NCBI GenBank assembly: GCA_041659045.1
Contig: JBAZZB010000001.1
Coordinates: forward strand, 390,111 to 454,110
Length of the DNA stretch: 64,000 bases
Reading direction: 5' to 3'
DNA from: Patescibacteria group bacterium
GTDB taxonomy: Bacteria; Patescibacteriota; Patescibacteriia; SG8-24; DYFX01
Part shown: positions 23,349 to 26,036 of the stretch, in pieces
Position numbering within the stretch: position 1 is the stretch's first letter
Layout of the letters: each line of letters begins with the position of its first letter
Program-made: the position numbers and the translations under genes
The notes under the pieces: model-generated
What the model saw: only the letters and a program-made list of their open reading frames with translations
The model's database searches: none
Told to the model about the DNA's origin: nothing

Positions 23349-26036
23349 TCACCGATTATACTTTTGCCTCTTTTGGTCGTAGGTATCGTTGCCGCCCTCC
23401 AGATACGTGATCACCTCGTCGCGGACATCGGAGAGGTTGATGGAGCCCGTCACTACGACACGTCCGGCCTTGGCCGTGGCCTCCATGATCGTGAATTGGT
23501 CGCTATCAGAAGCGACCGCAACAGAGGAGTTGTGGGTAGTGAAAATGAATTGCCTCCGCTCCTTGGTGTCACGAAGTTTTTTACACATGTCCTCCCAGAT
23601 CGATTTCAAGTCCAACGAATCTTCGGGTTGGTCAATGATGATTGGGAAGCGGCCGTCGCTGAGAGCAATAATCAACAAGGCTGTGGCCTTCTGCCCGACA
23701 GAAAGCTCCTCCAGCGGCTTGTACTCAGCCCCGACCCTGTAATTGATGACCGGGACATCCTTCGGCGCGGAAGTATAGAGTAGAGAAAGCAGCGTTTCGT
23801 ATGTATGTTCCTCAAGAAGGTGCTCGGCAAGCTTTTCAAGATTCTCGATCGTCAGGCCGGTTTTTGTAGCCAAATCTGATAGGGTCTCTTTTTGTGACCG
23901 GCCGGACCACTCGTATCTGAGTAGGGCATCAACAAAGTCCTTAGGATCGGCAGTGCCGGTCATCTTCTCGATGTCCTCATCTTTGAGCCACGACCCCTTT
24001 TTAAGTTTCAGCAAATTATTTTTGAAATCGCTTTTATCTTCCCGCGCCTTCATCGACACGCGCAAGGCATCGGCAGAATTTCCCGAAAAGAAATCACACC
24101 GGCCCTGGCGGTCTTCAAAGTAACTCAGCCGTGCGGCTTCAATCAGAGAGATCAGATCTGCCCTCCTTGCAGCCGTCGTCTTCATTTGCTGAGCGCGTGT
24201 TTCAAATTTGGCGAGCTCCTTTTCAAGGAGCGAGAGTGCGATGTTCAGCTTGTTTCGTTTTTGATCCAAGGCGATCTGGTCCCCACCGCTCTCCTTCACT
24301 GTTTTGTCGTATTCCGCCTTCACCGGGACGAACAGTGCATGCCAGTCATCGTATTCCTTTTTAAGAGCAGTACGCCTCGTACCAAGCATGGTCTGTGCCT
24401 CCTGATATTTATCTTTCAGGGATTTGATGGCGTCGGTCGTGATGTCTTGAGAACGCTTGAAGGCCGGATCATTTTCTGTATCAGCGTCGCTCGGCGTCGG
24501 CGCAGCAATCCCTTCAAGCCGCGAAAGCGCCTGCTGTGTTGACTTCTCAAGCTCGCCAAGAAAGACGATCTGTCCTGAAATAGCTAGACCGACTTTTTCT
24601 TTTTTGGAATAGCTAGCAAAGACGCTGTTCGTGATCTGCCGACCAAGTTTTTCAATTTCCTCTTTGTGCGCCGCAATTTGTTTTTTGATCTTCGTTGCGG
24701 AAAGGTGGGACCGTAGCGCGTCTGCGAAAACAGTATCCGTCTCAGTGAGATCGCCCGTCAGCCGCTCAATCTCCCTCTGGTGGTGCCGAAAATCGAAAAA
24801 TTTGTCGATGAATTCCCTCTGATTTCCGCCGGACCTATCTTCTGCGATTTTAACAACCTCGTTCTGGCTCAAGAACAGTACGGCAAAAAGTTCCTCAATC
24901 GGAAATTCTTTTTTAGAACCATCGGAAGCGTCGACAATCTCGATCGGGTGACTCTCACTGGGGTTCCAGGTTCTTTTGATGGTGTATCTCTTCCCAGATT
25001 CATCCACCACATCAACCTCTACGTAACCGTAAACCTTGAGACATTTTTCCAATTTAGAACGGTGATCGGCAGCCAGGTCTTGTTGGCTCGGTTCTTGGTT
25101 CAAGGCAAAACGCAGGAACTCGATCGTGAGTGACTTGCCGCTGCCCTTGGGTCCCAGGATGTTGTTCAGCCCTTCGTGGAAAAAGAACTCCTGCCCATCC
25201 AAAAAACCGCCCGTGACTTTCAGCCGCTCAATCCTAGGATAAAGCTGCTCCTTATACTCAAATGACTGCCTGATCCGAGTATCCCTATCGATAAGTGCCT
25301 GTCGAAGATCCTCGATGGTGATTGGGGTGTCAGCTTTAAAATGCGTGTACGAATCTCCAATGGTAGCTACCGAGTGAGAATCTGAGCTTTGATACACCCC
25401 GAGTTTCCGGTGTGAGAAATTTGGGTCCGTGCCATCGAGCAGGTCGATAACGCGCTTGTGCTGCTTTTTCTTTTCCTCATCCAAAAAATTCGACTCATTC
25501 GCCTCAGCGCCCAACAGACATTTCCTCGGTGCCTTAAAAATCAACGACCTCGTTTCGCCGTGGATGCTCCCAAGGACGCCTTTTGAGGAGTGGCAGTGGG
25601 CCATCGTCACGATGGCAGTCGGGTCGTAGCCTTCTAGCGCGTCGACAATTTGCCCAACGGTGCATTCGACGGCGGGCTGAACTTTCCCGTCTTTCTGATA
25701 AAGCTTTATCGTATTCAGGAACTGGTTGATGTGGTTTGTGTCCTTATCAACGTCAAACAACAAAATCAAATGCACACCACCCTCACCGCCCGTGGCGCAA
25801 AGCTCAACCCCTGGGAAGACGACCAGTTCGGTCCCGCGTGCCGCTTCCTTCATGCGATCCACCCATTCCGCCGTCTGGTGATCGGTGACGGCGATCGCTG
25901 CAAGGCCTTTGCCGAGCGCGGCATCGACAAGCATTTTTGGGGTGGTAGCACCCTTGTTGTCGGTGAAGTCCTCCGAGGCAGGAGTATGAACGTGGAGATC
26001 GAATTTTTTGAATTTTAGACCGTGTTTTGATCCCAT
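23349..26036 (-). CDS. Single-chain fusion protein, 895 aa. N-terminal PHP (polymerase/histidinol-phosphatase) phosphoesterase domain is joined to an SMC/Rad50/SbcC-type ABC ATPase (Walker A, ~350-aa coiled-coil insert, signature, Walker B, D-loop, H-loop). Candidate defence / DNA-processing protein.
   Basis: FDLHVHTPASEDF and AVTDHQT (PHP metal ligands). GPKGSGKSLT (Walker A). LSVGQKATALL (signature). IIIDQPEDSLD (Walker B/D-loop). FTTHNSS (H-loop). Confidence 0.7.
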   Translation of the reverse strand: MGSKHGLKFKKFDLHVHTPASEDFTDNKGATTPKMLVDAALGKGLAAIAVTDHQTAEWVDRMKEAARGTELVVFPGVELCATGGEGGVHLILLFDVDKDTNHINQFLNTIKLYQKDGKVQPAVECTVGQIVDALEGYDPTAIVTMAHCHSSKGVLGSIHGETRSLIFKAPRKCLLGAEANESNFLDEEKKKQHKRVIDLLDGTDPNFSHRKLGVYQSSDSHSVATIGDSYTHFKADTPITIEDLRQALIDRDTRIRQSFEYKEQLYPRIERLKVTGGFLDGQEFFFHEGLNNILGPKGSGKSLTIEFLRFALNQEPSQQDLAADHRSKLEKCLKVYGYVEVDVVDESGKRYTIKRTWNPSESHPIEIVDASDGSKKEFPIEELFAVLFLSQNEVVKIAEDRSGGNQREFIDKFFDFRHHQREIERLTGDLTETDTVFADALRSHLSATKIKKQIAAHKEEIEKLGRQITNSVFASYSKKEKVGLAISGQIVFLGELEKSTQQALSRLEGIAAPTPSDADTENDPAFKRSQDITTDAIKSLKDKYQEAQTMLGTRRTALKKEYDDWHALFVPVKAEYDKTVKESGGDQIALDQKRNKLNIALSLLEKELAKFETRAQQMKTTAARRADLISLIEAARLSYFEDRQGRCDFFSGNSADALRVSMKAREDKSDFKNNLLKLKKGSWLKDEDIEKMTGTADPKDFVDALLRYEWSGRSQKETLSDLATKTGLTIENLEKLAEHLLEEHTYETLLSLLYTSAPKDVPVINYRVGAEYKPLEELSVGQKATALLIIALSDGRFPIIIDQPEDSLDLKSIWEDMCKKLRDTKERRQFIFTTHNSSVAVASDSDQFTIMEATAKAGRVVVTGSINLSDVRDEVITYLEGGNDTYDQKRQKYNR

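Follow-up and report, generated by a model that had tools for sequence, protein, structure and literature searches.

A stand-alone PHP-ATPase gene of the TrlF/Ppl superfamily as cargo of a tRNA-Asn island in a Patescibacteria genome

What is the role of a gene that joins a PHP phosphoesterase and a Rad50-like ATPase in one polypeptide and lies between a tRNA gene and a serine recombinase gene? This question is raised by positions 23349 to 26036 (reverse strand) of a 64,000-nt stretch of the 646-kb contig JBAZZB010000001.1, part of a metagenome-assembled genome of a Patescibacteria group bacterium; the whole stretch is called the window in the following. The initial annotation had proposed a novel or rare defence system, possibly belonging to the Ppl family. 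From our analysis, the gene product is probably a stand-alone protein of the TrlF/Ppl superfamily, carried as island cargo and serving as a defence nuclease-ATPase against phage or other mobile DNA. Proteins of this kind are already known and catalogued, and the locus reveals no new kind of system.

According to the list of open reading frames (ORFs) and the translation, the gene is an intact ORF of 895 codons with an ATG start, encoding 895 amino acids. Its parts are the following:

23349..26036, reverse strand: gene for a PHP + SMC/Rad50-like ABC ATPase of the “solo” clade of the TrlF/Ppl superfamily (ORF, NCBIfam, PADLOC, hhalign)
25266..26015, reverse strand: PHP phosphoesterase/nuclease domain, residues 8–257 including PHP_C (Pfam, conserved metal ligands)
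24804..25235, reverse strand: ABC ATPase N-lobe, residues 268–411, with Walker A GPKGSGKS and Q-loop SQ390–391 (Pfam, alignment, model)
24078..24788, reverse strand: antiparallel coiled-coil arm, residues 417–653, with its apex near 509–523 and without a zinc hook (model)
23772..24065, reverse strand: helical insert domain, residues 658–755, between coil and C-lobe (model secondary structure)
23352..23762, reverse strand: ABC ATPase C-lobe, residues 759–895, with LSVGQK, DQPEDSLD and H835 (Pfam, alignment, model)

All motif strings quoted in the initial annotation were located in the translation. These are FDLHVHTPAS (residues 12–21), AVTDHQT (49–55), GVE (76–78) and HCHS (147–150) in the PHP part and GPKGSGKS (295–302), LSVGQK (778–783), IIIDQPEDSLD (799–809) and TTHN (833–836) in the ATPase part. 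Pfam assigned the N-terminal domain to PHP as proposed (residues 13–105, 34.0 bits against a cutoff of 26.4), placed PHP_C at 217–251 and also matched AAA_23 and AAA_21. An SMC_N match extended across residues 283–843 with a large insertion and lay, at 34.5 bits, slightly below its cutoff of 40.

We based the conservation calls and an AlphaFold2 model on an alignment of 55 homologs of the clade with 41–89% identity. The PHP ligands H17, D52, H53, E78, H89, H147, D219 and H221 are invariant in this alignment, and H15 is conserved in >90% of the sequences. Likewise invariant are Walker A (G295–S302), the Q-loop residue Q391, the signature (S779–K783), Walker B with the D-loop (D802–D809) and the H-loop residue H835, while F671, L675, G681 and L736 are conserved in the helical insert. 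Comparison with a homolog of 89% amino acid identity (L002) yielded a pN (non-synonymous differences) of 0.056 and a pS (synonymous differences) of 0.68, corresponding to a dN/dS of ~0.03. By domain, pN/pS ranged from 0.05 to 0.12, lowest in PHP (0.05) and highest in the coiled-coil arm (0.12), with the catalytic domains the most constrained. Both the PHP and the ABC ATPase active sites are thus intact and under strong constraint.

The model (mean pLDDT 87.5, pTM 0.73) places PHP at 8–257, the N-lobe at 268–411, long helices at 417–653, the insert at 658–755 and the C-lobe at 759–895. The arm is formed by helices 417–467, 473–508, 524–582, 585–616 and 618–653. An inter-lobe arm is therefore present as initially described, yet the assumed ~350 amino acids of coiled coil have to be corrected: the ~340 residues between the lobes comprise a coiled coil of only ~240 amino acids and a globular helical insert of ~100. 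A CxxC zinc hook was not found within residues 417–653, where C647 is the sole cysteine. In a Foldseek search against PDB, the top matches were SMC, MukB, Rad50, JetC (Wadjet), LmuB (Lamassu) and RecF heads, with E-values of 1e-8 to 1e-12 for the Rad50/SMC heads. Profile searches against PDB sequences identified the PHP phosphoesterases 3e0f, 9etk and 7ug9 as nearest to the N-terminus and Rad50, SMC and AriA for the ATPase part, with the Rad50 N-lobe at residues 279–355 and the C-lobe matching AAA_21 and the AriA C-lobe. Pfam, the alignment, AlphaFold2 and Foldseek agree on a PHP domain and an SMC/Rad50-like ABC ATPase in one chain.

To which family does this protein belong? The NCBIfam model NF045780 (“TrlF family AAA-like ATPase”) recognized it with 387.3 bits against a cutoff of 350, aligning residues 6–894 to profile positions 2–944, and close homologs already carry this name in NCBI records. 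For this reason, the initial label “novel” was not borne out. The label “rare” can be kept: we obtained 906 representative clusters at E ≤ 1e-30 among 1.84 billion.

The best PADLOC match was Ppl (PDLC02208; E = 1.7e-42, 143.6 bits), and there were weak domain-level matches to LmuB, AriA, GajA and mad3 (E-values of 1e-5 to 1e-14). With the equivalog model for Ppl, NF042955, the protein scored 183.5 bits and missed the threshold of 1000. As a calibrator we used a genuine Ppl from Klebsiella, which reached 1780.8 bits with the PADLOC Ppl model, 1351.7 with NF042955 and 462.6 with the TrlF model. Annotated TrlF proteins reached 131–317 bits with the PADLOC Ppl model. The members of the query clade scored 330–388 bits with the TrlF model, and one of them (L067, 330 bits) fell under the cutoff. 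Because the genuine Ppl scores 463 bits there and some members of the query clade less than 350, the TrlF model is in effect a superfamily model that includes Ppl, with uneven coverage and with the query clade at its fringe.

By BLASTP, the protein is 23–28% identical to annotated TrlF proteins and 21% to Ppl. Alignment of the clade profile with the Klebsiella Ppl by hhalign gave a probability of 100% (E = 1.4e-40) over 811 columns at 23% identity, spanning residues 11–896 of the query and 2–891 of Ppl and matching the HxH, DH, E, H, H and DxH motifs as well as Walker A. The membership in Ppl considered by the initial annotation hence holds at the level of full-length homology, but not for Ppl proper (183.5 versus 1000 bits, and 144 versus 1781 bits in PADLOC). 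Judged from these comparisons, the protein is a distant full-length homolog of Ppl that lies outside Ppl proper. A correspondence of canonical TrlFG to the PADLOC candidate system PDC-M49 was considered as well and remained unsupported, as TrlF references matched PDC-M49A weakly and TrlG matched only Schlafen-type models of pAgo/Aga.

Does the gene work alone or with a partner? In the temperature restriction locus (TRL) operon of Photorhabdus, trlF lies together with trlR and trlG. We surveyed the gene context of 78 loci from species-representative genomes, ~55 of which (at least 31% identity) constitute the query clade. A TrlG-like gene directly followed in 10 of the 78, all of them distant relatives with 22–29% identity to the query, and in none of the ~55 loci of the query clade. 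A verified TrlG from a Citrobacter IncC plasmid found no TrlG-like sequence in the 64-kb window by tblastn (best E-value 0.52), and the AlbA_2 pair from another locus of the survey (L003), used in the same way, found nothing in the window either. Pfam detected neither TrlG nor TrlR among the window neighbours. Because none of these searches found TrlG or TrlR, we rejected a two-gene TRL reading for this locus.

A phylogenetic tree supports the separation. In a quick neighbour-joining tree with midpoint root and without support values, of which we used only the coarse clade split, the query clade formed one group apart from the branch with Ppl, the annotated TrlF proteins and the TrlG-linked proteins. 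This split is corroborated by gene context. When we clustered every ORF lying up to three genes away from a clade member, no neighbour family recurred in more than five loci. Outside the source genome, the closest homolog is L002 (89% amino acid identity). It lacks a recombinase, and its DNA similarity to the window is confined to 26044–23349, which covers the ORF through its stop codon plus the 8 nt before its start. As this homolog shares just the ORF and no neighbour cluster is recurrent, the unit is a single gene without a conserved partner. More generally, both sequence and gene context separate the two-gene form with TrlG from at least one large clade without a partner. The latter, called the solo clade here, is spread over Patescibacteria, Acidobacteriota, Chloroflexota, Bacteroidota, Planctomycetota and several archaeal lineages. 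In several clade loci (L049, L058, L064 and L090, also L022 and L061), a crude ORF caller broke the homolog up so that the tblastn match covers at least two ORFs, which may point to frameshifts, decay of the gene copy or errors of assembly.

Alternatively, the protein could be a component of a multi-gene TrlFG-like or restriction-modification (R-M)-linked system whose partner lies elsewhere, and alone be inactive or act only as a sensor. It passes the TrlF family model, TrlG (AlbA_2 + HATPase_c_4) directly follows TrlF in the ten distant relatives and on the Citrobacter plasmid, an AlbA_2 protein is encoded three genes upstream of a homolog with 58% identity in another Patescibacteria genome, and three loci (L017, L018, L041) share a conserved upstream gene pair, probably type III R-M genes. 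Against this stand the searches for TrlG and for recurrent partners just described. Furthermore, there is no room beside the gene, with a terminator 45 nt upstream and the stop codon of the recombinase gene 22 nt downstream, and Ppl, which has the same architecture, acts as a single gene (PMC11482910). We consider a missing partner quite unlikely and retain the stand-alone protein.

How did the gene get to this place? It lies in an inserted block next to a tRNA gene. The features of this region are the following:

19837..26080, no strand: inserted block (island) of ~6.2 kb between the D4 repeats, low in GC and absent in the related genome L095
22022..23326, forward strand: large serine recombinase of 434 amino acids (Pfam Resolvase, Recombinase and Zn_ribbon_recom)
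19838–20254 (reverse strand), 20291–21196 (reverse strand) and 21138–21776 (forward strand): small ORFs in the island without family matches
26081..26121, no strand: D4b, island-proximal copy of the tRNA-Asn terminator hairpin, 41 nt with a 14-bp stem, terminator-like
19796..19836, no strand: D4a, the other copy of this hairpin, marking the distal border of the island, 90% identical to D4b
26154..26228, reverse strand: tRNA-Asn (GTT), the integration landmark (ARAGORN; Rfam tRNA, 74.6 bits)
17977..18030, no strand: D2a, degenerate copy of the tRNA-Asn 3′ end and its flank, 85% identical to 26120–26173

The recombinase gene is convergent with the PHP-ATPase gene, as initially described, and ends 22 nt from its stop codon. 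On the other side, 45 nt separate the start codon of the PHP-ATPase gene from the terminator hairpin of tRNA-Asn upstream of it, and the 3′ end of the tRNA is 118 nt away. A promoter scan found no convincing sigma-70 promoter within these 45 nt. Further on this side follow the tRNA-Asn gene and a gene for a Big_5 surface protein, with rpoD and dnaG further upstream. The three small ORFs had no match in Pfam or PADLOC, and an Rfam scan of the window found just two tRNAs. The GC content of the island is 0.522, compared to 0.568 for the window. The hairpin is kept in relatives but with another stem sequence, and the two copies of the window type therefore result from a duplication within this genome.

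The most informative relative is L095, a related metagenomic genome (Big_5 53%, amidase 79% and orf197 55% amino acid identity). Its order is Big_5, tRNA-Asn, D2/D4, a segment with orf197 and the amidase gene, and another D2/D4 copy; the 6.2-kb block is absent from the same site. Two further loci (L092 and L098) contain other sequence between their D2 copies, and the D2 repeat brackets other cargo in L092, L095 and L098. Because L095 lacks the block and L092 and L098 carry other cargo, the tRNA-Asn flank is an integration hotspot with tandem cassettes, in which the block bearing our gene is a lineage-specific insertion. The domains of the recombinase, the bracketing repeats and the unoccupied site in L095 all agree with a recombinase-mobilised island, and the adjacent serine recombinase is the presumed mobiliser that would have catalysed its insertion. 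The mobile island suspected in the initial annotation is borne out by the low GC content, the recombinase, the adjacency to tRNA-Asn, the duplicated terminator and the empty site alike.

Adjoining the island is an older cassette (17746–19836) that encodes an Amidase_6 protein (18144–18833, forward strand) and a protein of 197 amino acids (18889–19482, reverse strand). It is flanked by D2a and by D1, a 146-nt duplication at 99% identity (17746–17891 and 19608–19753) that comprises the terminator of a Nudix gene and the 3′ end preceding it. Two separate NUDIX-domain ORFs lie less than 3 kb apart just outside the island (14740–15327, reverse strand, and 17204–17863, forward strand). A palindromic motif, GGTACCTGGTACC, occurs at four sites of the window (12621, 16086, 17066 and 19587), all within 12.6–19.6 kb. 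Allowing up to two mismatches, we counted 7 strand matches of GGTACCTGGTACC versus 0.4 expected, and 0 of 100 shuffles reached 7; one copy precedes the duplicated 3′ end of the Nudix gene by 8 nt.

The tRNA-Asn gene, intact in the window, is interrupted elsewhere. In L099 (147–374, reverse strand), a relative of the window genome, it is broken at the anticodon loop by ~275 nt. This insert fits the full group I intron model RF00028 with 34.8 bits (E = 4e-7), not reaching the gathering score of 50, and represents a candidate group I intron in tRNA-Asn. In L093, the pieces of the tRNA-Asn are separated by ~0.9 and ~0.5 kb.

Is the gene tied to the recombinase next to it? The protein could serve the island itself, by competition between elements or stabilisation, for instance by degrading competing plasmids or islands or by killing cells that lose the island, or by processing DNA ends for the serine recombinase. 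The gene is packed against the recombinase gene in convergent orientation, large serine recombinases were found near clade members in ~7 of 56 loci (homologous ones in L004, L019, L022, L027, L043 and L050), superfamily members are frequent on plasmids and phages, and Wadjet JetC is among the fold matches of the model. SMC-like relatives such as Wadjet JetC are anti-plasmid. However, most clade loci lack a nearby recombinase, as does the ORF-only match L002, and the recombinases adjacent to clade members share only 24–43% identity among themselves, without a uniform position or orientation. Because of this divergence and variable placement, the gene is exchangeable cargo rather than the fixed partner of one recombinase. 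We therefore regard a role in the service of the island as unlikely, and this explanation overlaps heavily with defence.

The 58% homolog mentioned above lies on an island as well. In this second Patescibacteria locus (L004; ENA ERZ27247124, 254–10676), it is located at the far end of a ~10-kb tRNA-Trp island that also encodes a large serine recombinase, a helix-turn-helix protein, a C5-methyltransferase/HinP1I/Vsr module and a short AlbA_2 protein. The tRNA-Trp gene (738–813) and the serine recombinase gene as called (730–2346, reverse strand) overlap at the 3′ end of the latter.

What surrounds the relatives elsewhere? A census of 100 neighbouring ORFs from 47 clade loci, made without a background control, yielded as the most common families N6/N4 and Eco57I/MmeI methylases, type IIG and type III R-M, DrmMI/PglX-like methylases, ResIII, AAA_15/AAA_21 and resolvase, with 2–5 ORFs per family. 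On the Citrobacter IncC plasmid (L011; NZ_CP026233.1, 1065–12032), the insertion of a canonical TrlF-TrlG pair separates hsdS from hsdR in a type I R-M operon, and this TrlG consists of SLFN_AlbA_2 and HATPase_c_4. Distant superfamily members were found in a haloarchaeal DUF1156/DUF262/DUF499 cluster, adjoining a resolvase on Listeria plasmids and beside AimR on a Bacillus phage-plasmid. Another one is encoded by the P2-like Yersinia phage vB_YenM_42.18 (L109; OM046624.1, 3995–6613), between the replication gene gpA and the portal gene gpQ, an interval known as a hotspot for anti-phage cargo in P2. This member is annotated as “chromosome partition protein Smc”, which is probably wrong.

Might the gene instead belong to the core of the cell? 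The protein could be a one-chain analogue of SbcCD/Mre11-Rad50 for double-strand-break repair in a reduced Patescibacteria genome. The Rad50/SMC-type head with its coiled coil would fit, NCBI's Prokaryotic Genome Annotation Pipeline (PGAP) assigned the Gene Ontology term “double-strand break repair” to a TrlF homolog, and PHP domains are proofreading exonucleases in bacterial polymerases (PMC11348249). On the other hand, the protein lacks a zinc hook, and its gene resides in an inserted, low-GC and repeat-bracketed block that a related genome lacks. It shares no flanks even with the 89% homolog, and its rare family is scattered patchily over many unrelated bacterial phyla and several archaeal lineages. 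It is thus not a core syntenic housekeeping gene, and the repair function is the weakest of the alternatives and very improbable. The preference of the initial annotation for defence over housekeeping repair appears justified because the family is patchy, synteny is missing and the most frequent kinds of neighbour are R-M systems, other defence genes and recombinases.

How would such a defence protein act? The best-studied relative is Ppl, a single gene for which anti-phage activity has been demonstrated by experiment (PMC11482910; PMC12904381). The Ppl of Escherichia coli protects against T7, and a phage gene counters it (PMC11482910). According to a review of 2026, Ppl is a 3′-5′ exonuclease on single-stranded DNA that is inhibited by nucleoside triphosphates (NTPs) bound to both domains and becomes activated by phage-induced nucleotide depletion together with 3′-OH ends produced by phage homing endonucleases (PMC12904381). 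In the protein studied here, two ABC half-sites would dimerise on ATP as in Rad50/SMC heads, the coiled-coil arm and the helical insert would contribute to engaging DNA, and a nucleotide-dependent cycle would gate or position the PHP active site, which in turn would degrade nucleic acid that a phage or another mobile element brings into the cell. By analogy to Ppl, the likeliest activity would be that of a 3′-5′ exonuclease starting from free DNA 3′-OH ends, held off by cellular NTPs and released at infection by nucleotide depletion and DNA ends.

Several observations weigh against the defence role or its details. In the census, each defence-type family accounted for only 3–5 of the 100 neighbouring ORFs, a count to be read with the missing background control in mind, and some homologs lie among ordinary genes (L006). 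With the Ppl equivalog threshold missed and an identity of 21–23%, the mechanism is transferred from Ppl by inference. The nearest solved sequence relatives of the PHP domain are TrpH/RNase AM-type phosphoesterases, including a 5′-3′ exoribonuclease, and an RNA substrate or the opposite polarity is therefore possible. For both reasons, far less confidence attaches to the specific trigger and substrate than to the general role. For the TRL operon, the only reported phenotype is temperature-dependent growth restriction: in Photorhabdus, mutations in trlG (AlbA_2 + HATPase_c_4) relieve the growth arrest at 36 °C, and no trlF mutations were found (10.1101/2020.06.02.129163). This was the only paper that a search for TrlF/TrlG returned within the library searched.

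A more far-reaching view is that the solo clade is a functionally distinct single-gene immune system with its own trigger and/or substrate, spread by small serine-recombinase islands. It may, for example, act on RNA or with 5′-3′ polarity, or sense via the clade-specific insert at residues 658–755. We put this forward tentatively, as a possibility that is clearly the less probable one compared to a Ppl-like defence protein. If it holds, the Photorhabdus TRL locus would itself be an auto-activating defence system of the same superfamily, and the solo clade would be among the few dedicated defences outside R-M and CRISPR available to ultra-small episymbiotic bacteria.

What does the locus add? 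It provides a well-delimited case of a Ppl/TrlF-type nuclease-ATPase as single-gene cargo of a recombinase-bearing island of ~6 kb; the island occupies a tRNA hotspot, and the corresponding site is empty in a relative. The host genome belongs to the Patescibacteria, about whose phage defences little is known. Added here are the split of a partner-less clade from the TrlG-linked form, the position of this clade at the fringe of the family model and the empty-site example from Patescibacteria. With its fully conserved catalytic sites, the solo clade is a candidate for experiments. The comparison also links the Photorhabdus temperature-restriction operon to a validated anti-phage family. The TrlF-TrlG pair inside the R-M operon of the Citrobacter plasmid suggests that the “temperature restriction locus” is a defence module; within the library searched for TrlF/TrlG, we found no paper making this link.

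Compared with known systems, the protein is closest in layout to Ppl, with which it shares the single chain of ~895 amino acids, the N-terminal PHP domain, the split ABC ATPase, the helical arm and homology over the full length, as well as the occurrence as a stand-alone gene on mobile elements. It differs in forming a separate clade in the neighbour-joining tree, in its 21–23% identity and far lower scores with the Ppl models, and in its hosts, which are uncultured environmental lineages for the solo clade and Enterobacteria for Ppl. With the TrlF of the Photorhabdus trlR-trlF-trlG operon it has in common the PHP domain, the AAA-like ATPase and a full-length pass of NF045780. In contrast, adjacent TrlG or TrlR genes are lacking, with none in the window and no TrlG in the query clade, and the protein is placed near the fringe of the model (387 bits versus 463 for Ppl) at 23–28% identity to annotated TrlF proteins. 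Like SbcCD/Mre11-Rad50, it couples an ATP-driven ABC head split by a coiled coil to a metal-dependent nuclease. Here, however, a PHP domain fused in cis takes the place of a separate calcineurin-like Mre11/SbcD, and Pfam detected no metallophosphatase gene adjoining the PHP-ATPase gene. The zinc hook is absent, the arm is much shorter, a helical insert is added, and the gene is not core or syntenic. Finally, Wadjet JetC, Lamassu LmuB, PARIS AriA and Gabija GajA likewise combine an SMC-like or OLD-type ABC ATPase with a nuclease effector, but these systems consist of several subunits with Toprim, Cap4 or other nucleases, whereas the protein described here unites its ATPase with a PHP nuclease in one chain.

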